From Bacteroidota bacterium (lineage in GTDB: Bacteria > Bacteroidota > Bacteroidia > J057 > JAJTIE01): a stretch of DNA of 64,000 nucleotides. The notes beneath the pieces are model-generated. The model saw only the letters and a program-made list of their open reading frames with translations. It searched no databases and had not been told where the DNA came from. Location: positions 14,524-78,523 of the forward strand of contig JAJTIE010000018.1 in the NCBI GenBank assembly GCA_021300195.1. The letters run 5' to 3'. Below are positions 11,360 to 36,953 of this stretch, piece by piece; position 1 is the stretch's first letter; each line of letters opens with the position of its first letter. The translations under genes and the position numbers were made by a program.

Positions 11360-12169
11360 ATGGGCAAGGTTATCTCGATTGCAAACCAAAAAGGGGGAGT
11401 GGGTAAAACTACCACAGCCATCAACCTGTCTGCCAGCCTGGCGGTGCTGGAGTTTAAGGTATTGATGGTAGATACAGATCCACAGGCCAATGCCACCTCC
11501 GGGGTAGGCTTCGACCCACGAAACATCAAGGCCTCCATCTATGAGTGCATTACAAACGACGACGTAGACCCGCGCGGCATCATCCTGCAGACGCTCGTAA
11601 ACAATCTGAGCATCCTGCCCAGTCACATTGACCTGGTGGGGGCCGAGATTGAAATGATCAACCTGAACAACCGGGAAAAGAAGATGCGGGCCGTGATAGA
11701 CAAGGTGAAGGGCGACTACGACTTTGTGATCATAGACTGCTCACCCTCACTAGGCCTCATCACAGTGAATGCCCTGACCGCGGCAGATAGCGTGATTGTG
11801 CCCGTACAATGCGAATACTTTGCCCTGGAGGGGCTGGGCAAACTGCTGAATACCATCAAGATTGTGCAGCAGCGCCTGAACCCCGACCTGGATATAGAGG
11901 GCATCCTGCTAACCATGTACGACCAGCGCCTGCGCCTGAGCAACCAGGTGGTGGATGAGGTAAAGATGCACTTCCAGGACATCGTGTTCGAGAGCGTGAT
12001 ACAGCGCAACACCCGGCTGAGCGAGGCGCCCAGCTTTGGCGTACCCGTTATTATGCACGACGCAAACAGCAAAGGCTCGCTCAACTACCTGTCGCTCGCC
12101 GCCGAGATTCTGCGGAAAAACAACATCCCCATGCGTACCGAGCTACCCGAGGCTGTAAGCCAGCCCTGA
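11360..12169 (+). CDS. parA: Chromosome partitioning ATPase ParA/Soj
   Basis: Deviant Walker A NQKGGVGKTTT, followed by VLMVDTDPQANAT. It is followed by parB. Confidence 0.95.
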   Translation: MGKVISIANQKGGVGKTTTAINLSASLAVLEFKVLMVDTDPQANATSGVGFDPRNIKASIYECITNDDVDPRGIILQTLVNNLSILPSHIDLVGAEIEMINLNNREKKMRAVIDKVKGDYDFVIIDCSPSLGLITVNALTAADSVIVPVQCEYFALEGLGKLLNTIKIVQQRLNPDLDIEGILLTMYDQRLRLSNQVVDEVKMHFQDIVFESVIQRNTRLSEAPSFGVPVIMHDANSKGSLNYLSLAAEILRKNNIPMRTELPEAVSQP

Positions 12170-12266
12170 TGCAGGAACAAAGCGAATGACCACCCGAGAA
12201 CAAACAGCAATAGGCAGAGACTAAAAAAACGAACCGGCCAAACAGCCGGCAGAGCAACAGAAAAAA

Positions 12267-13178
12267 GTGGCGGAAAAAAAACCAACAAAACGAGTACTAG
12301 GCCGTGGGCTGGATGCACTCATCCCCCAAGCGGAGTACAATGTGGCAGGTAGCGTGGCAAACCACGGCTATGGCGAGACCGGCTCCATTCACGAAGTAGC
12401 CCTGGAGCACATAGAGACTAACCCCTACCAGCCCCGCACACACTTTGATGAAGATGCGCTGGAAGAACTGGCCGCCAGCATACGCGAGCAGGGCATTATA
12501 CAGCCCATTACCGTACGGCGTATGGGCCAGGATAGCTACCAGCTGATAAGTGGCGAGCGCCGCTACCAAGCCAGTAAGCGGGCTGGCCTGAGCCGGATAC
12601 CGGCCTACATACGCACGGCCAACGATGAGCAGATGCTAGAAATGGCCCTCATCGAAAACATCCAGCGCGAAAACCTGAACCCCATAGAAGAGGCCCTGGG
12701 CTACAAGCGCCTGATGGATGAATGCGAGCTGACCCTGGAGCAGGTGGGCATGAAGGTGGGTAAAAAGCGACCTACCATAAACAACTACCTGCGCCTGCTG
12801 AAGCTACCCCCCGAGATACAGGCCGCCCTGCGAGACAAACGCCTGAGCATGGGCCACGCACGCGCCCTGGTGTCGGTAGACAATCCGGTGTACCAGCTGG
12901 AGATCTTCCGAGAGGTGATGGATAAGGACCTGAGTGTACGCACCACCGAAGAGCGTGTACGCCAGATAGGCAGCCCCAAGGCCACAAAAGAAACCGAAGA
13001 ACCCAGCAAAACGGAACGCACTGCCTATGCCCTGCAGGCCCTGGAGGTAGAGCGCAACCTGAGCCGCAAGCTGGATGCCAAGGTGCGGATACAAACCGGC
13101 CAAGATGGGAGCGGCGAAATCAAAATCAAGTTTTACAACGGGGACGATCTGAATCGCCTCCTGGAGCTGATGGCATGA
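12267..13178 (+). CDS. parB: Chromosome partitioning protein ParB/Spo0J
   Basis: GTG start. RGLDALI is followed by the ParB box IQPITVR...YQLISGERRYQASKRAG and an HTH region. Confidence 0.95.
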   Translation: MAEKKPTKRVLGRGLDALIPQAEYNVAGSVANHGYGETGSIHEVALEHIETNPYQPRTHFDEDALEELAASIREQGIIQPITVRRMGQDSYQLISGERRYQASKRAGLSRIPAYIRTANDEQMLEMALIENIQRENLNPIEEALGYKRLMDECELTLEQVGMKVGKKRPTINNYLRLLKLPPEIQAALRDKRLSMGHARALVSVDNPVYQLEIFREVMDKDLSVRTTEERVRQIGSPKATKETEEPSKTERTAYALQALEVERNLSRKLDAKVRIQTGQDGSGEIKIKFYNGDDLNRLLELMA

Positions 13179-24761: not shown

Positions 24762-27575
24762 ATGCCCAGAGACACCTCCATCCAATCGGTCCTGATCATC
24801 GGCAGTGGCCCCATCATCATCGGTCAGGCGTGCGAGTTCGACTATTCCGGCACACAGGCCGCGCGTGCCCTGCGCGAGGAAGGCATAGCAGTTAGCCTGA
24901 TCAACAGCAACCCCGCCACCATCATGACCGACCCCATGATGGCAGACCAGGTGTATCTGTGGCCACTCACCCGCAAGAGCATTGTGCGGATACTGGAGGA
25001 GCGCAAGATAGATGCCGTACTGCCCACCATGGGTGGCCAAACAGCCCTGAACCTGTGCATAGAATGCAGCAAGGCTGGAATTTGGGACAAATACGGCGTG
25101 CGCATCATCGGCGTAGACCTGGATGCCATCCACCGGGCCGAAGACCGGGATGTGTTTCGGCGACTGATGGCCGATATTGGTGTGGAAACACCCAAAAGCC
25201 GCGTGGCGCGCAGCTTCCTGGAGGGCAAGGAGGCCGCACAGGAAATCGGCTTCCCACTGGTTATCCGCAGCTCCTACACCCTGGGTGGAACTGGCGGCGG
25301 CTTTGTGCACCGAAAGGAGGACCTGGACAAAGCCCTACGCTATGGCCTGGAGAGCAGCCCTGTGCACGAGGTACTGCTGGAAGAAAGCATTTTTGGATGG
25401 AAGGAGTACGAGCTGGAATTGCTGCGCGATGGCACGGGCAACTTTATTGTCATCTGCACCATCGAGAATTTTGACCCCTGTGGCATCCACACGGGCGACT
25501 CGGTAACCGTGGCACCGGCCCTTACCCTACCCGACACCCAGTATCAGGCCATGCGAGACCAGGCCATACGGGTAATGAACAGCATAGGCACCTTTGCCGG
25601 CGGCTGCAACATCCAGTTTGCCCTCGACCCAGAGTCTGGCCGCATTATTGTGATCGAAATCAACCCCCGTGTAAGCCGCAGCTCGGCCCTGGCCAGCAAG
25701 GCCACGGGCTACCCAATTGCCAAAATTGCTGCCAAGCTAGCCATTGGCTACAACCTGGACGAACTGCACAACCAGATTACCAAAACCACCTCGGCCTGCT
25801 TTGAGCCCAGCATAGACTATGTGGTAACCAAAATTCCACGCTGGAACTTCGAGAAATTTCAGGGTGCCAGCCGGGCCCTGGGCCTCACCATGAAAAGCGT
25901 GGGCGAGGTGATGGGCATTGGCCGAACCTTTGCCGAAAGCATACAAAAAGCCGCCCAGAGCCTGGAGATAAAGCGCAACGGACTGGGGGCAGATGGACGC
26001 GAACTGCGGAAAACCGAGCGCCTGATGGAGAGCCTGGCCAACCCCAGCGCCAATCGCTTATTCCACGTGCACGATGCCATGCAGGCCGGCATCAGCCGAG
26101 ATACGATACAGAAAACTACCCGGATAGACCCCTGGTTTCTGGATCAGGTAAACAGCATTGTACGGATGGAGGAGGAGCTGCGCCAGCACCGGCTGAACAA
26201 CATCCCCACCGAACTGCTGCGGCGGGCTAAGCAGATGGGCTTTGCCGACCGCCAGATAGCCCACCTGATAGACTGCCTGGAAAGCCAGGTGTACAAGCTG
26301 CGCACCGAGATGGGCATAAACCGCGTGTACAAAATGGTGGATACCTGTGCCGCCGAGTTTGAAGCCCAGACGCCCTACTACTACAGCACCTTCGAGGGCG
26401 AAAACGAAAGCCGGGTATCAAACAAAAAGAAAATCGTAATCCTGGGTAGCGGGCCCAACCGGATAGGCCAGGGCATTGAGTTTGACTACTGCTGTGTGCA
26501 TGGCCTCCAGGCCGTAAAGGAGGCCGGCTACGAGGCCATTATGGTAAACTGCAACCCCGAAACCGTAAGTACCGACTTTGACATAGCCGACAAGCTGTAC
26601 TTCGAGCCTGTATTCTGGGAGCATGTGTACGACATCATCCAGCACGAAAAGCCCGAGGGCGTGATCGTACAACTGGGCGGCCAAACAGCCCTGAAGCTGG
26701 CCGAAAAACTGACCAAATACGGCATACCCATCATAGGCAGCAGCTTTGACAGCATAGACCTGGCCGAGGACCGTGGCCGCTTCAGCACCCTGCTGCGCGA
26801 CCTGGAGATACCCTACCCCGTGTTTGGCGTGGCACGCAGCGCACAAGAGGCCCTGGACCTGGTGAAAGACATTGGCTACCCCGTGCTGGTGCGCCCCAGC
26901 TACGTGCTGGGAGGCCAGCGCATGCGCATCGTCATCAACGACGAGGAGCTGGAAAGCCATGTAATAAAGGTGCTGCGCGAAATGCCCGGAAACCAGGTGC
27001 TGATAGACCGATTTCTGGAAGGCGCTGCCGAGGCCGAGGCCGATGCCCTGGCCGACGGGGAACAGGTGCACGTAATGGGCATCATGCAGCACATAGAGCC
27101 CGCCGGCATACACAGCGGAGACAGCACCGCCGTGCTGCCCCCCTTCGACCTGGGCGACCTGACCCTGAAAACAATAGAAGACTATACCATACGGATTGCC
27201 AAGGCACTGAACGTGAAGGGCCTCATCAATGTGCAATTTGCCATCCACAAGGGTAAGGTGTATGTGATAGAGGCAAACCCGCGTGCCAGCCGTAGTATGC
27301 CCTTTATCTGCAAGGCCTACCAGAAGCCCTACCTGAACTATGCCACCAAAGTAATGATGGGCACCCACCGGGTATCCGACTTTGACCTAACCCCCATCCG
27401 TACCGGCTACGCCATCAAGGTGCCGGTCTTTAGCTTCAGCAAGTTTCCCAACGTGAACAAGGAGCTGGGGCCAGAAATGAAAAGCACGGGCGAGGAAATC
27501 CGCTACATAGATGACCTGATGGACGAATACTTCCTGCAGGTGTACAGCGAACGCAACCTCTACCTCAGCCGCTAG
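24762..27575 (+). CDS. carB: Carbamoyl-phosphate synthase large subunit
   Basis: MPRDTSIQSVLIIGSGPIIIGQACEFDYSGTQA is the canonical CarB N-terminus. Two ATP-grasp halves and a C-terminal MGS-like domain follow. The 123 upstream codons of the track ORF are antisense shadow over the neighbouring membrane-protein gene. Confidence 0.97.
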   Translation: MPRDTSIQSVLIIGSGPIIIGQACEFDYSGTQAARALREEGIAVSLINSNPATIMTDPMMADQVYLWPLTRKSIVRILEERKIDAVLPTMGGQTALNLCIECSKAGIWDKYGVRIIGVDLDAIHRAEDRDVFRRLMADIGVETPKSRVARSFLEGKEAAQEIGFPLVIRSSYTLGGTGGGFVHRKEDLDKALRYGLESSPVHEVLLEESIFGWKEYELELLRDGTGNFIVICTIENFDPCGIHTGDSVTVAPALTLPDTQYQAMRDQAIRVMNSIGTFAGGCNIQFALDPESGRIIVIEINPRVSRSSALASKATGYPIAKIAAKLAIGYNLDELHNQITKTTSACFEPSIDYVVTKIPRWNFEKFQGASRALGLTMKSVGEVMGIGRTFAESIQKAAQSLEIKRNGLGADGRELRKTERLMESLANPSANRLFHVHDAMQAGISRDTIQKTTRIDPWFLDQVNSIVRMEEELRQHRLNNIPTELLRRAKQMGFADRQIAHLIDCLESQVYKLRTEMGINRVYKMVDTCAAEFEAQTPYYYSTFEGENESRVSNKKKIVILGSGPNRIGQGIEFDYCCVHGLQAVKEAGYEAIMVNCNPETVSTDFDIADKLYFEPVFWEHVYDIIQHEKPEGVIVQLGGQTALKLAEKLTKYGIPIIGSSFDSIDLAEDRGRFSTLLRDLEIPYPVFGVARSAQEALDLVKDIGYPVLVRPSYVLGGQRMRIVINDEELESHVIKVLREMPGNQVLIDRFLEGAAEAEADALADGEQVHVMGIMQHIEPAGIHSGDSTAVLPPFDLGDLTLKTIEDYTIRIAKALNVKGLINVQFAIHKGKVYVIEANPRASRSMPFICKAYQKPYLNYATKVMMGTHRVSDFDLTPIRTGYAIKVPVFSFSKFPNVNKELGPEMKSTGEEIRYIDDLMDEYFLQVYSERNLYLSR

Positions 27576-27800: not shown

Positions 27801-30800
27801 ATGCTTTTTACCGAACAGCCCCTGCTGCAAACACTGCCCCTGGAATGGCGCGCCCGTACGGTAGAGCTGGGTGAGCTGGAAACCTTTGTAGCGGCACTGC
27901 AGCAGCTGCTGGCGGGCCTGAATGACAAGGAGACCGAAGAGCACAACAAAAACCTGGTGCGCGACTTCCTGAAGGCAGCCTTTGCTGCCGACTATGCCGA
28001 TACCAACACCAAGGGCCGGGTAGACCTGGCCGTGTACCAGGACGGGATGCCCGTGGTGCTGATAGAGGCCAAGGCACCCGGCAAGCATGCGGACTTCCCT
28101 ACGCCCGGCGACCTGAACACCAAGGCGCTGCACGAGCTGGTGCGCTACTACATGGCCGAACGCCTAGAGCACGCCAACAACCGCATCACCCAGCTGATCA
28201 TCACCAACGGGCTGGAGTGGTATATCCTGCAAGCGCAAGACGTGGAGCGCCACTTCTACGAGCACACAGCCTTTCGCAAAGCCTACCAGAGCTGGGCCAA
28301 GGGCGACCTGACCAGCCAGAAGACGGACCACTTCTACAAAGAAATAGCCCGCCCCCACATAGCGCAGCTGGAGGCCGAGCTGCCCTACCTGTACCTGAAC
28401 CTGCGCGAGCTGGGCACCCTGCCCGAAAGCCTGGCACAGCTGCGCAACCATAGCACCTGGCTACAGGCCTTCCGGGTGCTGCACCCCCACCACCTGCTGA
28501 AAAAGCCGCTGCCCAACCGAGGCAATACGCTGAACCGCCCCTTCTACGAGGAGCTGCTACATGTGCTGGGCCTGCAGGAGGAGGGCACCAAAAACCCCAA
28601 GCCCATCACCCGCCTGCCCGAAGCTGAGCGGCAGCCCGGCGCGCTGATGGAGAATGTGGTGGCCACCATGGTGGCCAAAGGCAAAAAGCTGCTGGAGCGC
28701 GAGCCCCTGATGTCGATGGTGCCCACCTATGGCACCACCTATGACGAGCAGGTGTTCAATATGGCCTTTGAGCTGGTGAGCACCTGGCTGAACCGCATCC
28801 TCTTCCTCAAGCTGCTGGAGGGCCAGCTGGTAAGCTACCATGTGAACAACAAGGGCGAACCCGGCGATGCCCGGCAGGCTTTTCTCCATACCAAAAAGAT
28901 ACCCGACTTCTTTGCCCTGCGCGATCTCTTCTTCCAGGTGCTAGCCGAGCGGCCCGAACAGCGCGAGCAGGAGCTGAAGGAGCTCTTTGGCCATGTGCCG
29001 TACCTAAACAGTTCGCTCTTTGAGCGCACAGCGCTGGAGGAGGCCACGGGCATAGAAATCAGCAGCCTGTACCCCCACCGCAGGCTGCTGCCCTACCGCA
29101 AAACGGTGCTGCGGGTAAAACCCGACACACCCCTAGACTTTCTGCCCTACCTGTTCGACTTTCTGGATGCCTACGACTTTAGCACCGTGGAGGTACGCGA
29201 GGTGCGGGCGGGCAACCGTGGCCTGATAGACGCACGGGTGCTGGGCCTGGTATTTGAGAAGCTGAATGGCTACAAAGACGGCTCCTTCTACACCCCCAGC
29301 TTTGTTACCATGTTTATGGCCCGCGAGGCGGTGCAGCGCGCTGTGGTGAACAGCCTGAACCGCGAGCTGAAGTGGGACTGCCCGGACTATGCCGCCCTGC
29401 GCGACCGTGTGGAGTGCCTGAAGAAGGAGGAACGACCCCGGGTGTCGGGCCTCATCCGCCAGCTGCGGGTGGTAGACCCCGCCGTGGGCAGCGGCCACTT
29501 CCTGGTATCGGTGCTGAACCAGCTGATATACACCCTGTGGGAGCTGGAGCTGCTGTACTACCACGACAGTGCCAGGGGCAAAGACAGCGACAAGCTGGTG
29601 CTGCCCGCACGCTACACCTTCAGCATCGTGGAGGACGAGCTACTGCTGGCAGACCAAAATGGAGACCGCCTGCGCTACCACCTGGGCCGAGACGGAAAGC
29701 CCAACGCCGAGGTGCAGGCCCTGCAAGAAACCCTCTTCCACCTGAAGCAGGAGCTGATAGAGAACTGCCTATTTGGCGTGGACCTCAACCCCGCATCTGT
29801 ATACATCTGCCGCCTGCGCCTGTGGATAGAGCTGCTGAAGCACGCCTACTATGCCGCGCCCCACTATCGGCATATGGAAACCCTGCCCAACCTGGATATC
29901 AACATCAAGCCGGGAAACAGCCTGGCCAGCAAGTTCCGATTGCACCTACCGTTTGTTGAAACCCGAAACGAAGAAATCTCGCTGGCACTGTACTTAAGCA
30001 GTGTGCATGCCTATAAGCACGAAAAAGATATAGAAGAAAAAGGGCGGCTTACTGCGTATATCGATAAGGTAAAAAAACACTTCACAAAATCATTCCGGGT
30101 ACAAAAAAACGACCCGCTTGAAGTAAAGAGAACTCAGCTTGAATCCCAGCTGATGGAACTGACAGGCCTGGGGATGGAAAGACTTCTGTTAAGTATTATG
30201 GAAGTATGGTCCGATGAGTCCAGAAAAAAGAAGATTGAAAAAATAACCAGCCAAATCCAAGAGATAGAGCAGGAGATAAAGAAAAAGGAAACGGGCATCC
30301 TCTGGAGAAATGCTTTTGAATGGCGGTTCGAGTACCCGGAGGTGCTGGACGAGCGGGGCGACTTTGCGGGCTTCGACCTCGTGATCGGCAACCCGCCCTA
30401 CATACGCCAGGAGCAGATACAGCACCTGAAGCGTGTGCTGGAGCAGAACTACGACACCTACACCGGCAGGGCTGATATATATGTCTTCTTCTTCGAGCTG
30501 GGCTACCAGCTGCTGCGGCCCGGTGGCACCCTGGCCTACATTACCAGCAACAAGTTTATGCGCGCGGGCTATGGCGAAAAGCTGCGCGCCTACCTACAGC
30601 AGCACATGGCCATCCGCACGCTGGTCGACTTTGGCGACCTGCCAGTGTTTGACGAGGCCATAGCCTACCCCGCTATCTACGTAGGCGAAAAACGACAGCC
30701 CGAACCCGAGGGCAGCGGCCTGCTGGCCCTCACCGTGACAGACAAGGCCGAGATGAAAACCTTTGCCCAGCTGTACGACACCCAGGCCCTGCGGCTGGCC

Positions 30801-31736
30801 CAGCAGCAGCTGGAGCCCACCGCCTGGCGGCTGGAAGACCCGCAGGTGAGCCGCCTGCTAGACAAGATGCGCCGTGCCGGCACCCCCCTGGGCGAGTATG
30901 TGAGCGGCAAGATATTTTACGGCATCAAGACCGGCCTGAACGAAGCCTTTGTGGTGGATGCCGCCACCAAAGACCGTCTGATAGCCGAAGACCCCCGCAG
31001 CATCGAGGTGCTGAAGCCCTTCCTGCGGGGTAGGGACATCAAGCGGTACGAAAAGCCGGTGGCAGAGACCTGGCTGATCCTGCTACCCAAAGGCATTACC
31101 ATCAAAAGCGCGCGCGACGGCGAACCCCTTCCTGCTTTTTTACAGGGAACGGTGGTGGAAGAGGCACCCGCCCGCTATGGCACCATCGCCTACGAAGAAG
31201 CGGAGGAGTGGCTAAAGGGAAGCTATCCCGCTATATACAAATGGCTGTTGCCCTTTAGGGAGAAGGCGGAAGCACGCGCAAACCAGGGCGACTTCTGGTG
31301 GGAACTGGGAGCTTGTAGCTATTATCCCGAATTTCTGAAGCCCAAAATTGAAGTGCCCGCCATTGTCTCGCGCAGTAGCTGTACGCTAGACACACAGGGG
31401 GCTTTTTCGAATGACAAAACCACCATCATAACGGGTGAAAAAGTATTGCTAGTATTACCCCTATTGAACAGCAGGGCGGCAGAGTTCTTTATGAAGTGTA
31501 TCTCGCCTACTCGCCAAAATGATTATTATGAGTACAAGCCCGTCTATCTCGCCAGGATTCCCATCCCCAAAGCCAGCAAAGCGCAGCAGAAGAACCTGGA
31601 AAAGCTGGCCCAGCAGGTAATGGATGCCAAGGCGCAGGGCGCAGATACCGCAAACCTGGAGGCGCAGATAGACACCCTGGTGTACGAGCTGTACAGCCTC
31701 AGCACAGATGAAATCGCACTAATAGAACAGGGCTAG
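27801..31736 (+). CDS. Type IIG restriction-modification enzyme (fused PD-ExK endonuclease / N6-adenine DNA methyltransferase / TRD; Eco57I/TaqII-like)
   Basis: 1311 aa. The N-terminal nuclease motif is D(28023)LAV...VVLIE(28065)AK(28071). The AdoMet motif I is VVDPAVGSGHFLV (about 29469-29501). Catalytic motif IV is VIGNPPY, with NPPY at 30390-30401. The C-terminal 300 aa or so is variable and TRD-like. There is no separate hsdS or hsdR gene and no BREX partner genes. Confidence 0.85.
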   Translation: MLFTEQPLLQTLPLEWRARTVELGELETFVAALQQLLAGLNDKETEEHNKNLVRDFLKAAFAADYADTNTKGRVDLAVYQDGMPVVLIEAKAPGKHADFPTPGDLNTKALHELVRYYMAERLEHANNRITQLIITNGLEWYILQAQDVERHFYEHTAFRKAYQSWAKGDLTSQKTDHFYKEIARPHIAQLEAELPYLYLNLRELGTLPESLAQLRNHSTWLQAFRVLHPHHLLKKPLPNRGNTLNRPFYEELLHVLGLQEEGTKNPKPITRLPEAERQPGALMENVVATMVAKGKKLLEREPLMSMVPTYGTTYDEQVFNMAFELVSTWLNRILFLKLLEGQLVSYHVNNKGEPGDARQAFLHTKKIPDFFALRDLFFQVLAERPEQREQELKELFGHVPYLNSSLFERTALEEATGIEISSLYPHRRLLPYRKTVLRVKPDTPLDFLPYLFDFLDAYDFSTVEVREVRAGNRGLIDARVLGLVFEKLNGYKDGSFYTPSFVTMFMAREAVQRAVVNSLNRELKWDCPDYAALRDRVECLKKEERPRVSGLIRQLRVVDPAVGSGHFLVSVLNQLIYTLWELELLYYHDSARGKDSDKLVLPARYTFSIVEDELLLADQNGDRLRYHLGRDGKPNAEVQALQETLFHLKQELIENCLFGVDLNPASVYICRLRLWIELLKHAYYAAPHYRHMETLPNLDINIKPGNSLASKFRLHLPFVETRNEEISLALYLSSVHAYKHEKDIEEKGRLTAYIDKVKKHFTKSFRVQKNDPLEVKRTQLESQLMELTGLGMERLLLSIMEVWSDESRKKKIEKITSQIQEIEQEIKKKETGILWRNAFEWRFEYPEVLDERGDFAGFDLVIGNPPYIRQEQIQHLKRVLEQNYDTYTGRADIYVFFFELGYQLLRPGGTLAYITSNKFMRAGYGEKLRAYLQQHMAIRTLVDFGDLPVFDEAIAYPAIYVGEKRQPEPEGSGLLALTVTDKAEMKTFAQLYDTQALRLAQQQLEPTAWRLEDPQVSRLLDKMRRAGTPLGEYVSGKIFYGIKTGLNEAFVVDAATKDRLIAEDPRSIEVLKPFLRGRDIKRYEKPVAETWLILLPKGITIKSARDGEPLPAFLQGTVVEEAPARYGTIAYEEAEEWLKGSYPAIYKWLLPFREKAEARANQGDFWWELGACSYYPEFLKPKIEVPAIVSRSSCTLDTQGAFSNDKTTIITGEKVLLVLPLLNSRAAEFFMKCISPTRQNDYYEYKPVYLARIPIPKASKAQQKNLEKLAQQVMDAKAQGADTANLEAQIDTLVYELYSLSTDEIALIEQG

Positions 31737-31737
31737 C
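31561..31737 (+). repeat. Direct repeat copy 1 (last ~59 codons plus stop of the R-M gene)
   Basis: Aligns without gaps to 33668-33844. About 19 mismatches in 177 nt were counted by eye. Confidence 0.85.
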
Positions 31738-31804
31738 AGCACACATGGTACAGGCGCTACCGACGAGAAAAACAAGACTGCCCCACTAACGTACACACCC
31801 GCCA

Positions 31805-32455
31805 ATGGCTAGCAGTACAGCTAATACAGACTACACACAGCTATTCATCTACCGTATTACCCATAGGGACAATATACCCTATCTACTGGAAAAAGGTATT
31901 TGTTCGTCCAATAGTCTTAATGTTTCACCAAGTTATGTGAATATTGGCCATAAGGAGGTGATCGAAAAACGGAATGCTACGCCAGTAAGAATAGATGGGT
32001 ATGGTGTATTGCACGACTATGTGTCCTTTTATTTTACCCCACACTCGGTAATGTTGTACAACATCAAAACCGGCTATGGGAATGTTGAGCAACGGCCCCA
32101 GAATGAGATAGTGATATTACAGGCTTCTATTATGTGTGTTATTGCGAGTGGACAGCGCTTCTTCTTCACCGATGGCCAAGGCAATGCTCGCATCACTAAA
32201 CACTTAGCCAACCCAACGGATCTGGATAAAATCGATTGGCCGTTGATACGTAAACGTGATTTTAAAAACGAGCCGCAGGACATGGATAAGCACCGAAGAT
32301 ACCAGGCCGAATTTCATGTACATGGGTGCGTACCCGTTAGCTGCATCCATAAGATCGTTGCTTACGACACAGAAACCACTACTTTTGTAGAGAGGGAAGT
32401 AAATAAGAATGGGCTTTCCATTCCCGTACAGGAAGACACAAAGTATTACTTCTGA
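31805..32455 (+). CDS. darT: DarT, DUF4433-family DNA ADP-ribosyltransferase toxin
   Basis: Colinear with Thermus/Mycobacterium DarT as remembered: IYRITHRDN (cf. IYHITHIDN), VLHDYVSFYFTP (cf. VLHDYVPFYFCP), FFFTDGQG (cf. FVFTDRHG) and the catalytic-Glu box YQAEFHV (cf. KQAEFLV). The Glu codon is at 32309-32311. The gene is AT-rich relative to its flanks. Confidence 0.9.
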   Translation: MASSTANTDYTQLFIYRITHRDNIPYLLEKGICSSNSLNVSPSYVNIGHKEVIEKRNATPVRIDGYGVLHDYVSFYFTPHSVMLYNIKTGYGNVEQRPQNEIVILQASIMCVIASGQRFFFTDGQGNARITKHLANPTDLDKIDWPLIRKRDFKNEPQDMDKHRRYQAEFHVHGCVPVSCIHKIVAYDTETTTFVEREVNKNGLSIPVQEDTKYYF

Positions 32456-33510
32456 TGGCTATACGGTTCACACAGGGCAATCTATTACAGTCTGAGGCTG
32501 AGGCCTTGGTTAACACCGTTAATACTGTCGGGGTAATGGGTAAAGGTATTGCTTTGCAATTCAAGGAAGCCTTCCCTGCTAACTTCAAGGCTTATCGCGA
32601 AGCCAGCAAGCACAATGAGCTGGCGCCTGGTAAACTGCTAGTACTACGCGATAAAAATCTACAGTATGGGGAGAAGATCATCATCAACTTCCCTACCAAA
32701 ACGCACTGGAAAGGTGCCTCCAAATATGAGTATATAGAGAGCGGGCTGGTAGCACTACGTAAGCTACTGCTAAAGGGTGAGATACAGAGCATTGCCATTC
32801 CGCCACTGGGCTGTGGCCAAGGTGGGCTGGATTGGGCCCGTGTAAAGCTGATGATACTAGAGCATCTGCAGGGCCTGGAAACAGTAATCGACGTATATGA
32901 ACCCAATAGCGAAATCAAGGCTACATTACAAGCCCAGCCTATGCATAAAAAGCCTGTTAAGCTGACCCGGGCCAGGGCTATGCTACTCTATGCCTTGTTT
33001 CACTATGAGCAGCTGGGTGAACAGAGCAGCCCTTTTTCGGCCAATAAACTGGCTTACTTTCTGCAAAGACTAGGAGAGCCTATGAAATTGGAGTTCAAGC
33101 CTTACATTTATGGCCCCTACGATGAGAAAGTAACACATGTGCTTTATGCATTAAATGGGCAATATCTAAAGGGGTTGGAGCAGAAACAGGCCAAATCTTT
33201 TGAGCCCCTACTACTAGACTACAGCAAATGGAAAGAGGTGAGCACCTATGTGGCAGAGCAGCTGAATGAGGCAGAGCAAGACCGCCTTCAGCGACTAATA
33301 CAATTGCTTACCGGGTTTGAGAGCGAACTATCACTTGAGCTTCTAGCTACAGTAGACTTTATACTGGCCCGTAACCCTGAATACAACCAAAAACAGGTAA
33401 TGGAAGCTATACGCCGGTGGAACCGGCGCAAAGAGCGCTTGTTTAAGGAAGAGTATGTACAAATAGCATATAACCATTGGGTAGAGCACCAGGCACTTTT
33501 CAGCAATTGA
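32455..33510 (+). CDS. darG: DarG, macrodomain antitoxin (DNA ADP-ribosyl glycohydrolase) with C-terminal toxin-binding-type domain
   Basis: The N-terminal macrodomain FTQGNLLQSEAEALVNTVNTVGVMGKGIALQFK...IINFPTKTHW...PPLGCGQGGLDW is nearly colinear with TaqDarG. The Lys of FPTK is at 32698-32700. The start overlaps the darT stop in TGATG. Confidence 0.9.
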   Translation: MAIRFTQGNLLQSEAEALVNTVNTVGVMGKGIALQFKEAFPANFKAYREASKHNELAPGKLLVLRDKNLQYGEKIIINFPTKTHWKGASKYEYIESGLVALRKLLLKGEIQSIAIPPLGCGQGGLDWARVKLMILEHLQGLETVIDVYEPNSEIKATLQAQPMHKKPVKLTRARAMLLYALFHYEQLGEQSSPFSANKLAYFLQRLGEPMKLEFKPYIYGPYDEKVTHVLYALNGQYLKGLEQKQAKSFEPLLLDYSKWKEVSTYVAEQLNEAEQDRLQRLIQLLTGFESELSLELLATVDFILARNPEYNQKQVMEAIRRWNRRKERLFKEEYVQIAYNHWVEHQALFSN

Positions 33511-33639
33511 GTAAGGGGGACACCATAGTAGAATCGCATTGCCTATTGCAGGGCAGTCATTATCTCGTCCTCCTAAATCTATTAGTTGTACATACTATTT
33601 GAGCTCTACATGCCCTTCAATTAGGGGCAGATATTTGAG

Positions 33640-33843
33640 ATGAAAACACAACATGTTGAGACTATCCCCATCCCCAAAGCCACCAAGGCGCAGCAGAAGA
33701 ACCTGGAAAAGCTGGCCCAGCAGGTAATGACCGCCAAGGCGCAGGGCGAAAATACCGAAAGCCTGGAGGCGCAGATAGACGCTATCGTATACCAGCTGTA
33801 CGGGCTTAGCACAGATGAAATCGCACTAATAGCACAGGGCTAG
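33640..33843 (+). pseudogene. Orphan remnant of a Type IIG R-M gene 3' end (67-codon ORF)
   Basis: Residues IPIPKATKAQQKNLEKLAQQVMTAKAQG...STDEIALIAQG* parallel the R-M C-terminus IPIPKASKAQQKNLEKLAQQVMDAKAQG...STDEIALIEQG*. Only 8 unrelated codons (MKTQHVET) precede the homology. Confidence 0.6.
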
Positions 33844-33844
33844 C
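33668..33844 (+). repeat. Direct repeat copy 2 (displaced R-M 3' end)
   Basis: See 31561-31737. It has the same length and the same stop context (cagggcTAGc). Confidence 0.85.
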
Positions 33845-33926
33845 GGGGGCAGGGATCAGGCACACCAGCTGGCACCTGTCGACCCCCGACAAAACACACC
33901 GGGGAGGGGAGGCAGGGCTACTGCCA

Positions 33927-35315
33927 CTACACCAGCACGGCTGGCGCAGCCTGCACCCGGGCCTCAAACTCGTCCTGAAAGCGCAGGATAGCACCGCGTA
34001 CGGGCCAGGCGGCGGCATCGGCCAGGGCGCAGATGGTGCGGCCCTCCATGTTGTAGCACAGGTCTAGCAGCAGGTCCAGGTCGCGGGTGCCGGCCTGGCG
34101 GTGTACAAACTTGGCCAGCAGGCTCTTCAGCCAGCCGGTGCCCTCGCGGCAGGGGGTGCACTGGCCACAGCTCTCGTGGTCGTAAAAGGCGGCGGCGCGG
34201 TAGGCATAGCGCACCATGTCTACCGTTTCATCCAGCACCAGGATGCCGGCCGTACCCATGGCCGATCCGGCCTTGCCCAGGCTGTCAGCGTTCATGGTTA
34301 CGCCCTCTATGCTGAAGGGTTTGCCGTGGGCATCCACGTTGATGCGACCGCCCATCATGTCTTTGTACTGGTCGGTGGGTACCCAGCCGGGTGTGCTGCC
34401 GTCGGCCCGCAGCACGGGTACCGATACACCACCGGGCACCACGGCCTTTATCTTTTTGCCGCCGCGGATGCCGCCAGCTACATCGTAGATCAGGTCGGTA
34501 AGCAGCATGCCGGTGGGGTACTCGTACACGCCGGGCTTGTTTACATGGCCGCTGATGCCGTAGAGCACGGGGCCGGGATGATCGGGCGCACCCAGGCTGC
34601 TAAACCACTGGGCGCCGTTTTTCAGCACCAGGGGTACGTTGGCCAGGGTCTCTATGTTGTTGATGGTGGTAGGCTTGCCCCACAGGCCGTACTGGGCCGG
34701 GAACGGCGGCTTGCTGCGCGGGTAGGCCCGCTTGCCCTCCAGGCTCTCCATCAGGCTGGTCTCTTCGCCACATATGTAGGCACCGGCACCCTTGTGCACG
34801 AATACGTCGCAGCTAAACTGGGTGCCAAACAGGTTCTTGCCCGCATAGCCCTTGGCATAGGCCTCGTCTACTGCTGTTTGCAGGATGTCTATCCAGTCGG
34901 CATACTCACCGCGGATGTACACATAGGCCGCGTCCATCTGCATGGCGTAGCAGGCCAGTATGGCGCCCTCTATGAACAGGTGGGGGTTGAACTCGAAGAG
35001 GCGGCGGTCTTTGAAGGTGCCGGGCTCACTTTCGTCGCCATTGCAGGCCAGGTAGCGGGGCACCCCCTCCTGCTTGGGGGGCATAAAGCTCCACTTAAGG
35101 CCGGCGTTGAAGCCGGCTCCGCCGCGGCCGCGTATGTTGGCGGCCTTTACCAGGTCTATCAGCTTTTTAGGCTCCCAGCTTTCCTCTTTTACCACGCGCT
35201 TCAGCTGTGTGTAGCCCCCGTGCCGGGTGTACACGTCTATTTTGTGGTAGTCCGGTATGTCCGGCAGCAGCACCTTCTGATAGCTTTTCCAGTCCATGGT
35301 TTTGTACGGAGACAA
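33927..35315 (-). CDS. nuoF: NADH-quinone oxidoreductase subunit F (NuoF, 51-kDa FMN/NADH-binding subunit)
   Basis: GRGGAGFNAGLKW (FMN/NADH site), ACNGDESEPGTFKDR, and the 4Fe-4S ligands ESCGQCTPCREG...C are present. No nuoE or nuoG is adjacent. Confidence 0.95.
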   Translation of the reverse strand: MSPYKTMDWKSYQKVLLPDIPDYHKIDVYTRHGGYTQLKRVVKEESWEPKKLIDLVKAANIRGRGGAGFNAGLKWSFMPPKQEGVPRYLACNGDESEPGTFKDRRLFEFNPHLFIEGAILACYAMQMDAAYVYIRGEYADWIDILQTAVDEAYAKGYAGKNLFGTQFSCDVFVHKGAGAYICGEETSLMESLEGKRAYPRSKPPFPAQYGLWGKPTTINNIETLANVPLVLKNGAQWFSSLGAPDHPGPVLYGISGHVNKPGVYEYPTGMLLTDLIYDVAGGIRGGKKIKAVVPGGVSVPVLRADGSTPGWVPTDQYKDMMGGRINVDAHGKPFSIEGVTMNADSLGKAGSAMGTAGILVLDETVDMVRYAYRAAAFYDHESCGQCTPCREGTGWLKSLLAKFVHRQAGTRDLDLLLDLCYNMEGRTICALADAAAWPVRGAILRFQDEFEARVQAAPAVLV

Positions 35316-35415
35316 AGGTTTTACCGGGCCAAATTACGTAAAAGGATCCGAATGCCGGGTGCCAGGCTTGTATACAATCCAACATTACACGGGGCGGTGG
35401 CGGGCTAGGCTGAAT

Positions 35416-35566
35416 ATTAATGATTTGGTAACCCCTGGCGCGGGGCTGCATAGGCGGCTGGGGCTTAACCTGCGCGGCTTATGGCACGGAGGTCTGGATT
35501 TACAAACCGGTGCGCCGACACCCTGTGGGACTGGCTATATGCCTGGTGACGAGGCTGGCTGCGGGC
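35416..35566 (+). repeat. Direct repeat copy A (decayed copy of the pstS leader and 5' codons)
   Basis: About 90% identical to 36801-36953 with two 1-nt indels. The pstS-like ATG at 35481 runs into a TGA after 22 codons (35547-35549). Confidence 0.8.
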
Positions 35567-35638
35567 GCAGCAGCAGCGGTGGCCGTCTGCCAGGTCAGCA
35601 CCGGTGTAGGCAAACGCTGCGGTGCCCTGTGCAGTGGC

Positions 35639-36643
35639 CTAGTCCGATTTGGTTACGCTCAGCTCCAGCACACCACCGGTGCAGGGCGGGAAAAGATCTG
35701 GGAAAACAGGATCGCCGCCCGGATTAAAGCCGCGGATGCGGTAGCGGATTACCTGGTAGGGCTGGCCGGCGGCCAGGCTGAAGGTGGCAGAGGTCTCACT
35801 TACCGTCAGGGGCTGGTAAGCGCCGTACGTGCCCGAGCCGGGCGTGGTCTCCTGGGCCACTTGTGTCTGATTGGGGCCAAAGCCACCGAGATCGATAAGG
35901 GTAAAGGTGGCAGCATCGCTACAGGTGGTTGCCGCGCCAGGCTCTTGCACCTTCAGGTTGCCATAGTCTACGGTAAACTGCTGCGGAAACTCCTCCGCGC
36001 TACAGTTGTTAAGGCTGATACGCGCATCATACTGGGTAACCAGGCCCACCCGGTCGGCACGCACGGGCAAGATAAACTCGTATTGATGGGCTCTATTGAT
36101 GGTGGCCCCATTGGCCGTAAAGGTGGCCGTTTGCCAGCTGCTTTCGCCCGAAATCCGGTATTCTACCTTACTCAGGTGCTCGTAGGTCACGAAATTAAAG
36201 TTGGCTACCTGGCTGGCCGCATCTGTACACAGCCTTCGCACTGCGCCTAAGAAGGCAATGTCGTAGAGCCCTTCTGCGCCATAGTTGATGGTGTAGTTCT
36301 GCGCAAACTCCTGCGGGCCACAGCCCGAGTTGTTGATGTTCTGATCGCTGATACGCACGTCATACTGGGTAAGCAGGCCCACGCGGTCGGCACGCACAGG
36401 CAAGATGAACGCGTATTGCAGGGTGCCCGTGGTGGTAACGGCGGCTGTTTGCCAGCTGCTTTCGCCCGAAATCCGGTATTCTACCTTGGGGATCACGCTG
36501 GTAGAAAAACCAAAGACGGCTTCCTGGCTTGCCGCATCTGCACACAGCGTTTGCTCTGTGGTAAAGAAGGTGATCTCGCACTGGGCGGCGGCCAGCTGTG
36601 CCGACAGCAGCAGGAGCAGCAAGAAGTAAAATAGCCTTTTCAT
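35639..36643 (-). CDS. Secreted protein with two ~115-aa tandem internal repeats (unknown family)
   Basis: The internal start MKRLFYFLLLLLLSAQLAAAQ is a signal peptide (ATG at 36643). The block KVEYRISGESSWQTA...ILPVRADRVGL.TQYD.RIS occurs twice. The repeat is also visible in the DNA (36131-36170 vs 36451-36490). Confidence 0.6.
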   Translation of the reverse strand: MKRLFYFLLLLLLSAQLAAAQCEITFFTTEQTLCADAASQEAVFGFSTSVIPKVEYRISGESSWQTAAVTTTGTLQYAFILPVRADRVGLLTQYDVRISDQNINNSGCGPQEFAQNYTINYGAEGLYDIAFLGAVRRLCTDAASQVANFNFVTYEHLSKVEYRISGESSWQTATFTANGATINRAHQYEFILPVRADRVGLVTQYDARISLNNCSAEEFPQQFTVDYGNLKVQEPGAATTCSDAATFTLIDLGGFGPNQTQVAQETTPGSGTYGAYQPLTVSETSATFSLAAGQPYQVIRYRIRGFNPGGDPVFPDLFPPCTGGVLELSVTKSD

Positions 36644-36800
36644 CAGAAAAAGACAATGTTGAAAAGCCACGCAAAGCAAAGATAGCGGCCCCGTGTGGAC
36701 AGATACGCCTGAAATGGCGAATAGTCGAAAATGATGTTGGGGCCCCGTGTGGGCCATACGCTGCATGCTGCCAGCCAACAGGGCGGGGGGGATATACATT

Positions 36801-36953
36801 ATTAATGATTTGGTAACCCCTGGCACGGGGCTGCATAGGCAGCGGGGGCTTAACTTGCGCGGCTTATGGCACCTAGGTCTGTATTTGCAAACCGGTGGGC
36901 CGGCACCCTGTGGGGGCTGGCTATATGCCTGGTAGCGGGGCTGGCTGCCGGGC
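36801..36953 (+). repeat. Direct repeat copy B (functional pstS leader and signal-peptide codons)
   Basis: See 35416-35566. It contains the pstS ATG at 36866 and an intact lipoprotein signal (LAGC). Confidence 0.8.

Follow-up and report, generated by a model that had tools for sequence, protein, structure and literature searches.

In a 64-kb stretch of contig JAJTIE010000018.1 from a Bacteroidota bacterium (the window, meaning the whole 64,000 nt that were analyzed), an intact Type IIG restriction-modification (R-M) gene is followed by the gene pair darT and darG, and this pair is followed in turn by a second copy of the 3' end of the R-M gene. We interpreted this second copy, designated copy 2, to be the stranded end of a displaced older allele of the same Type IIG gene, with darTG riding with the present gene end. 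We put the probability of this reading at about two in three. Genomic scars of this kind are familiar. The population evidence is unusually clear in this case, but the arrangement is not a new mobile element, mechanism or system.

The 1311-aa product of the R-M gene contained the Pfam domains DUF7149-DUF7814-Eco57I-TaqI_C, and PADLOC called it REase_MTase_IIG (851 bits). The next two genes were identified as darT, for a single-stranded DNA thymidine ADP-ribosyltransferase toxin, and darG, for a macro-domain antitoxin (Table 1). The start of darG overlapped the stop codon of darT by 1 nt. Judged from its adjacent DarT (DUF4433) and macro-domain DarG genes, the pair is a DarTG toxin-antitoxin, or defence, system. 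An earlier reading of the window from its letters (the original prediction) had named these genes and the flanking carB and nuoF in the same way, and Pfam and PADLOC agreed with it. The GC content was 0.558 in both tails (the two copies of the gene end) and 0.455 in the 1926 nt that separate them, as expected from the earlier description of an AT-rich darTG between two copies. darTG is foreign, low-GC DNA with the intact R-M gene on one side and the leftover end of an R-M gene on the other, and on this ground its proposed status as a later arrival at an R-M locus was upheld.

The repeat finder gave a sole outstanding direct repeat, consisting of the C-terminal tail of the expressed gene (copy 1) and copy 2, 181 nt long with an offset of 2107. 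Base-by-base comparison showed 161 of the 181 nt to be identical (89%), with 20 mismatches and no gaps. All remaining repeats in the 9-kb region were 37 nt or shorter and 70-81% identical. The pairwise alignment that had been proposed as a check was thus favorable: the gapless repeat and its 89% identity stood, and its size was corrected from 177 bp with about 19 mismatches. The edges of the repeat were sharp. The left edge lay at ATyCCCATCCCC, which corresponds to an IPIP motif, and the right edge lay one base past the TAG. Past the stop codon the alignment score was at the chance level, even with gaps allowed.

At the protein level, 11 residues differed between the two tails, the number counted before, over 58 residues and not 59. 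The nucleotide mismatches were spread 6/6/8 over the three codon positions. When the tails of the two copies were compared with those of 118 other family members, the median number of shared residues was 22 of 58, and the maximum was 30. Set against this family median, the identity between copies 1 and 2 (81% for protein, 89% for DNA) indicated that the two tails are close alleles and do not just have a motif in common.

A C-terminal profile of the family was made from the last 200 residues of 110 members. It aligned with the copy-2 region from 33584 on, so that the match began 80 nt upstream of where the repeat does. One frame upstream of copy 2 read SSTCPSIRGRYLR*K, and the frame of the orphan open reading frame (ORF) in copy 2 carried on as KTQHVETIPIP. 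A 1-nt deletion had changed a Trp codon to TGA at 33641-33643. Restoration of one G, which turned this TGA into TGG, gave the reading YYLSSTCPSIRGRYLRWKTQHVETIPIPKATK, where the closest relative has FLASISSSVRGGYLRWKKQYLFQIPIPTATK. The repaired reading YYLSSTCPSIRGRYLRWKTQHVET was likewise similar to FLASISSSVRGGYLRWKKQYLFQ of P0002, the closest homologue. The gene-end motif of the displaced allele would be ...SIRGRYLRWKTQ(H/Y)VETIPIPKATKAQQ..., with a domain end of the RGRYLRWK type.

The profile score was 54.8 bits for the tail alone and 68.5 bits for the unrepaired sequence. The best single-indel repair, at 33637-33641, raised it to 84.1 bits, with a match over 33584-33843. As a control, the 104 upstream nt were shuffled 200 times and the best indel was taken each time; the mean was 58.8 bits and the maximum 66.6 bits. 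We interpreted the orphan, from this profile match, to be a 3' remnant of at least 260 nt of an R-M gene carrying one frameshift. Its ATG appears to be a chance product of the frameshift (AGA TG(G) AAA), and by the same reading the orphan is not a gene. The original prediction was correct about the 67 codons of this ORF, but the eight codons it regarded as unrelated were the decayed continuation of the R-M gene.

Only about 20% of residues were common to the remnant and the live gene upstream of IPIP, where their DNA similarity was at chance. Downstream of IPIP, 47 of 58 residues were shared. The orphan was tested by this comparison for a variable module different from that of the expressed gene, and it had one. 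The jump in identity at IPIP also indicated a breakpoint between modules: at the left end of the repeat a diverged specificity-domain end gives way abruptly to a close tail, and this place is not the edge of an insertion.

The R-M protein, the orphan peptide, NuoF and CarB were used in exact-protein look-ups, which retrieved from NCBI, JGI, ENA and Logan a strain set of about 15 independent assemblies, all belonging to the same species and 99.4-99.99% identical to the window in alignments of more than 2.8 kb. The R-M protein of the window was 100% identical to proteins of Sphingobacteriia/Bacteroidota metagenome-assembled genomes (MAGs). The order carB, R-M, darT, darG, orphan, nuoF was found in every contig that was long enough. 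Copies 1 and 2, each with its own flanks, were spanned by at least eight independently assembled contigs.

Copy 1 was identical in every assembly, and copy 2 contained 30 variable sites that defined at least four alleles. Allele A, the state in the window, was also present in two JGI samples. Allele A', in which the two leftmost diagnostic sites are in the copy-1 state, was present in six independent assemblies. Allele A'' had GAT, the state of copy 1 and allele B, at 33730-33732, with an insertion sequence (IS) upstream (contigs L010, L011 and L027). Allele B, with 18 differences from A, 11 of them private variants, was found in L004/L033 and L005, and together with the IS in L009. The distances among copy 1, allele A and allele B were about equal (19, 22 and 18 differences in 174 nt), which gives them the appearance of three alleles of a single gene end.

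The four-gamete test gave 14 incompatible site pairs, all of which split 33683 and 33687 from sites at or beyond 33730. This placement indicated at least one exchange within the 42-nt run, a stretch in which the copies do not differ. All the four-gamete incompatibilities spanned this run, and it also contained the switch point of contig L008, described below. Short patches in the copy-1 state were seen in alleles A' and A''. Going by these mosaics, the tail acts as a recombination substrate inside this species. The C-terminal end had been proposed as a recombination handle for the whole family. Within the species the proposal held, given the mosaic alleles and the incompatible pairs, but the support did not extend to the family; the related locus L001 carries a Pycsar system and no orphan tail.

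Comparison of L004 with the window showed how local the variation was. The 9.8 kb of carB-RM-darTG contained 4 single-nucleotide polymorphisms (SNPs), and the 165 nt of copy 2 contained 19 SNPs as well as a 7-nt indel just behind the stop codon. Further to the right there were 10 SNPs in nuoF, 8 SNPs in the 120 nt at 35530-35649, and 4 differences in the next 8 kb. Alleles A and B had the frameshift in common and were identical across 33511-33651. This common frameshift, together with the 140 nt upstream of 33652, suggested that the remnant was formed once and that its tail was re-patched later, from copy 1 and from unsampled donors.

The IS encoded a 354-aa HTH-rve transposase (Pfam rve/rve_3) and was inserted at the same base in four assemblies with two different tail alleles. 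Its presence inside copy 2 in these four assemblies indicated that the orphan is dispensable. The IS-bearing parts were L009 1-1525, L010 1-27, L011 1-464 and a part of L027. No homologue of this IS was found within the window, and its far end was not recognizable in L009. The shorter darG call in L006 was a difference between gene callers and not a mutation.

These results can be put together as follows. An earlier R-M allele would have ended directly before nuoF. Recombination would have imported the present 3' part, or the whole of the present gene, with darTG behind its stop codon, and the last 90 or so codons of the old allele would have been stranded downstream. The two alleles would have had distantly related specificity-domain ends and closely related C-terminal tails. 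Such a combination would explain why the identity jumps from background to 89% exactly at IPIP and ends at the stop codon. The architecture was observed, and we infer the step behind it: most likely a homologous crossover on the left side and an illegitimate join within 33511-33583 on the right side, that is, homology-facilitated illegitimate recombination. The remnant would then have decayed, acquiring one frameshift, now in all strains, and an IS in some. The 181 nt common to the remnant, the live gene and the other alleles in the population would allow patching by homologous recombination to continue, which would make the remnant a local hot spot of variation. The leftover R-M end beside nuoF suggested that an R-M gene of this lineage stood there before the present arrangement. 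As an alternative, the original prediction had mentioned a crossover with a diverged allele in which darTG was already present downstream, and this came close to what we regard as the best explanation.

If this is correct, a defence island was remodelled here without mobile-element machinery: an R-M gene gained a new 3' end and a toxin-antitoxin cassette, and the old end was left as a recombining scar. 'C-terminal displacement', known from polymorphic toxin loci, would thereby be extended to a Type IIG restriction enzyme. The locus would also carry two warnings, namely that short 'methyltransferase' orphan ORFs beside defence genes can be scars, and that repeats bracketing a cassette do not by themselves prove an att site.

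Several observations weighed against allelic displacement. Neither the intact old allele nor an empty site was found in any genome searched, so that both the left crossover and the sequence in which the events took place are inferred. The 73 nt expected to hold the illegitimate junction showed nothing diagnostic. The differences between the tails of alleles A and B require recombination with unsampled, unseen donors. The dN/dS values among the tails, 0.38-0.67 from 18-22 changes, fail to separate tails that 'diverged while functional' from tails that are 'decaying'. Locus L001 has cargo without a remnant, and displacement that leaves a scar is thus not the rule in the family. As to composition, darTG lies between gene and orphan and is foreign, and the specificity-domain ends of both alleles are also low in GC; GC therefore does not link the new end with darTG.

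Empty or collapsed sites were sought among the strain contigs, the members of the R-M cluster and the exact look-ups with NuoF and CarB, and none was found. A NuoF-anchored search of the genome collection returned 11 loci, the best of which was 83% identical and had lost synteny; that of the metagenome collection returned one distant locus and nothing useful. The empty-site alleles at carB-nuoF that the original prediction had suggested looking for were therefore not recovered, the nearest loci being from other species with lost synteny. In the nearest of these species (L012 7489-11788, with the NuoF that was 83% identical), different genes occupied the R-M/darTG side of nuoF, and carB was not nearby. 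By sequence reading, these genes resembled a putative Fic-like ORF and a putative 1043-aa ORF.

The nearest DarG homologues were 60-65% identical, and the similarity was limited to the coding sequence. They were found in two contexts, one between SusC/D genes and enolase, and the other in a DISARM/Vsr island. No tail fragment or border similarity was present at these two loci, and neither adjoined this R-M family. The suggestion that DarTG cassettes follow this R-M tail in other genomes was thus not borne out. The protein search with the tail peptide listed seven short proteins and omitted the full-length R-M proteins, and for this reason it leaves room for a live gene with a copy-2-like tail.

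No integrase, transposase or invertase was found among the annotated neighbors (window about 14.8-45.3 kb) or, by Pfam, among the remaining ORFs of the 64-kb window that were 180 aa or longer. In this the neighbor lists and the Pfam scans agreed with the original prediction, which had reported no integrase or transposase. A tRNA gene was also absent from the window. The 9-mer GGCTAGCAG, which occurs at the R-M gene end and at the darT start, was considered as a microhomology junction and rejected, as it had 4 occurrences in the window (GGCTAGC had 16). Promoter, terminator and Rfam scans gave nothing above background.

The closest homologue, P0002, was 64% identical overall to the R-M protein of the window, and the window gene was a mosaic relative to it. 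The nucleotide identity was 86-94% over residues 877-1076, 35-48% over residues 719-836, and 39% over residues 1197-1236. Both of the low-identity segments were low-GC patches. The contrast between 86-94% and 39% suggested a conserved body and an exchangeable 3' module in the expressed gene. The low-GC patches (0.38-0.48) lay at window positions 29900-30300 and 31300-31556. The first coincided with a coiled-coil-like insert within the methylase domain (residues 719-836), and the second with the specificity domain's end (residues 1186-1253). Breaks at the first patch in several MAG contigs gave partial proteins of 733 and 735 aa.

At the locus of the closest relative (L001 10019-11286), a Pycsar pair, consisting of PycTM and a nucleotide cyclase, began 5 nt past the R-M stop codon, and there was no orphan. 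Pycsar in L001 versus darTG in the window suggested that the site just behind the R-M gene takes different defence cargo. One further direct orphan was found, in L080 (11459-11695). This was a 3' remnant in direct orientation, matching profile positions 103-180 with 34 bits, about 250 nt behind an intact family gene and followed by IS3-like transposase frames. None was present in L001 or in the other IMG/VR loci that had downstream sequence.

In 8 of the 43 IMG/VR loci of the family, a second module of specificity domain plus tail was present in inverted orientation, accompanied by a serine invertase and by inverted repeats, long as well as short. These invertible-switch loci included L045 10908-13267, L049 10892-12776, L068 11094-13370, L069 and L077. 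Their family members are distant (35% identical). A silent half-gene (TaqI_C plus tail), convergent and about 350 aa long, lay beside a 211-aa serine invertase, and the inverted repeats of 180-264 nt and 31-36 nt were 92-97% complementary. L049 and L069/L077 were inversion isomers. Inversion of the specificity domain has been published for Type IIG systems of Bacteroides fragilis (PMC13064476).

One contig of the strain set, L008 (Logan SRR7182477, 1778 nt), joined window 32282-33729 to 31623-31952. It ran through darG, the spacer behind it and a tail, and then into the 67-nt spacer and the start of darT. In its tail the three left sites were in the copy-2 state and the remaining 17 in the copy-1 state, and it contained no other SNP. 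This is the junction expected of a 2107-nt circle or of a tandem duplication, with the switch inside the 42-nt identical run. The k-mer of the Logan assembly collection is understood to be 31, which is shorter than this run. L008 may equally be a chimera of k-mer assembly, and we treated it as a candidate junction only. No second contig of this type was in the set, and the reciprocal collapsed allele was not found in 11+11 contigs or in the members of the R-M cluster, all of which had the copy-1 tail.

A RecA-type exchange in the 42-nt run could loop out a 2,107-nt circle of tail, darT and darG, or amplify the cassette. darTG would then be a cassette mobilized by recombination, L008 its junction, and the mosaics of copy 2 the footprints of its entry. 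We considered this unlikely. If true, the circle could re-enter any R-M allele with a similar tail by a single crossover, which would amount to integrase-free mobility for a defence cassette, and the mosaic alleles of copy 2 would be traces of repeated entries into different resident alleles.

In the original prediction the repeats were read as attL/attR-like: a small darTG element would have integrated site-specifically into the 3' end of the R-M gene and supplied a surrogate gene end, its integrase being lost or acting in trans. A precedent is the integration of e14 and phage 21 into icd, with an integrase, a defined att core, a surrogate 3' end and an icd pseudogene fragment. As in icd, the last 50-60 codons are present twice in the window in diverged form, one completing the gene and the other an orphan beyond the insert. 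In favor of this reading, a foreign low-GC cassette lies between direct repeats, and the junction in L008 is what an excised circle would show, but this contig switches in the 42-nt identical run and may be chimeric. Unlike the icd case, no recombinase is present, and there is no tRNA gene. The inner flank of copy 2 is the frameshifted end of an R-M specificity domain and not element DNA, and the repeat edges match a protein-module boundary and a stop codon and not an arbitrary core. The nearest DarTG cassettes, moreover, lie in other contexts without tails. These findings left integration at an att site very improbable. Another view is that copy 2 is a mis-joined read-through of the same gene end, produced by assembly or binning. 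Several contigs do stop close to the repeats (L003 at 50 nt ahead of copy 2, L031 and L032 inside it). On the other hand, the two copies differ at 20 positions and were recovered with their own flanks in at least eight assemblies, from NCBI MAGs, JGI, ENA and Logan. This refuted an artefact, the chance of which we take to be practically nil. A diversity-generating retroelement was rejected as well: the mismatches involve all four bases, and no reverse transcriptase is present in the annotated neighborhood.

A target duplication would also produce direct repeats. On this view darTG entered immediately after the stop codon of the R-M gene, 181 nt of the target were duplicated in the process, and divergence of the copies came later. 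For R-M units, this way of insertion without an integrase is known from Nobusato and Furuta. Integrase-free R-M rearrangements with long direct repeats were described by Furuta, Abe and Kobayashi in 2010, and long direct repeats (> 30 bp) around an insert without mobility genes, as in the window, form a class there (PMC2853133). Such copies start identical, yet copies 1 and 2 differ by 11% while the strains differ by 0.01-0.6%. The same upstream sequence would be expected on both sides, but the remnant has a different specificity-domain end, and the three tail alleles are roughly equidistant. The published criteria also need R and M genes in the insert, which here is darTG and not an R-M unit (PMC2853133). 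We gave this explanation only a slim chance. A little more probable, although still unlikely, is the reading that copy 2 was once a silent specificity cassette in a phase-variation system and has since decayed, and that darTG was inserted between gene and cassette. The spare modules downstream of the gene in 8 of 43 family loci, with their inverted repeats, serine invertase and inversion isomers, and the published inversion in Type IIG systems (PMC13064476) speak for it. In these loci, as in the invertase switches of Type I hsdS and Type IIG systems (PMC7672463, PMC13064476), extra specificity or C-terminal modules lie beside the gene. The modules are inverted and intact, about 350 aa long in this family, and served by a dedicated, adjacent recombinase. 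The remnant in the window, on the other hand, is direct, about 87 codons long and frameshifted, with no relevant inverted repeats and no invertase nearby. It is the orphan, and not the expressed gene, that has accumulated variation; a donor cassette would lead to the reverse. Att integration, target duplication and the silent cassette were each contradicted by one or more of the features tested.

Allelic displacement, the preferred reading, has counterparts in other systems. In rhs and contact-dependent inhibition (CDI) loci, C-terminal displacement, as reportedly described by Jackson et al. in 2009 (cited in PMC5361080), brings in a new 3' module with small companion genes, and the old 3' end remains downstream as an orphan, with its orientation unchanged and without a promoter. 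Recombination between orphan and live gene is said to be made possible in these loci by a short segment that both contain. The window gene is similar in having a conserved body, an exchangeable 3' module, putative companion genes, a direct orphan and a shared segment. It differs in that it encodes a restriction-modification enzyme, that its companions are an unrelated DarTG pair and not a cognate immunity gene, that there is one orphan, already frameshifted, and that the shared segment lies at the extreme 3' end and not upstream of the variable part.

For the way in which type VI secretion system (T6SS) effector-immunity modules are displaced in Vibrio cholerae, the mechanism put forward is homology-facilitated illegitimate recombination, and orphans are left behind (PMC5361080). 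The likeness to the reading proposed for the window consists of one homologous anchor and one illegitimate end, relics downstream, and no need of an integrase. The Vibrio arrays later spread by homologous recombination (PMC5361080), as the near-identical carB-RM-darTG block suggests for the window too. On the other hand, the Vibrio relic is a functional immunity gene under selection, and the relic in the window has no evident function. In the study of Furuta, Abe and Kobayashi, the C-terminal specificity region of Type IIG genes differed between close strains while the flanks matched (PMC2853133). The repeats in the window, with their 11% divergence and different upstream contexts, set it apart from the insertion class in that study.

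Table 1. Positions in the window of the R-M/darTG locus, its repeats and its flanks.
Feature	Position	Strand	Basis or remark
carB, conserved left flank	24762-27575	+	Domain scan and neighbor look-up
Intact Type IIG R-M gene, 1311 aa	27801-31736	+	ORF list; Pfam; PADLOC
Copy 1: C-terminal helical tail of expressed gene, from IPIP motif through stop codon and 1 nt beyond	31557-31737	+	Invariant in all strains
42-nt run identical in both copies, probable exchange interval	31581-31622	+	Partner 33688-33729 (+)
Spacer from R-M stop codon to darT start codon, 67 nt	31738-31804		Unrelated to DNA behind copy 2
darT, single-stranded DNA thymidine ADP-ribosyltransferase toxin	31805-32455	+	Pfam DarT 3e-51; PADLOC DarT 194 bits
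darG, macro-domain antitoxin	32455-33510	+	Pfam Macro 8e-21; PADLOC DarG 390 bits
73 nt behind darG, thought to hold the cassette/remnant junction	33511-33583		No family-profile match or similarity to DarTG relatives
Putative decayed end of specificity (TaqI_C) domain of displaced R-M allele, GC 0.375	33584-33663	+	Family profile
67-codon orphan ORF, putative pseudogene fragment	33640-33843	+	ORF list; frame repair
Copy 2: putative tail of displaced allele, polymorphic (A, A', A'', B; 30 variable sites)	33664-33844	+	Repeat alignment; strain comparison
IS insertion point in other strains	33720-33721		Homology ends at 33721 in L009, L010, L011 and L027
7-nt indel polymorphism (GGGGGCA) directly behind copy-2 stop codon, right end of hypervariable patch	33845-33851		L004 comparison
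nuoF-like gene, conserved right flank	33927-35297	-	Domain scan and neighbor look-up

Elsewhere in the window, the partition genes parA and parB adjoin at 11360-13178. The window is chromosomal and may perhaps lie near the replication origin.

A second pair of direct repeats was found on the nuoF side, at 35415-35565 and 36800-36951, with 136 of 151 positions identical. It flanked a hypothetical gene of 334-386 aa beside nuoF. This gene contained an internal tandem of about 300 nt (35960-36263 versus 36278-36578, 72% identity). The cluster of 8 SNPs between strains at 35530-35649 lay within and just past the first repeat of this pair.

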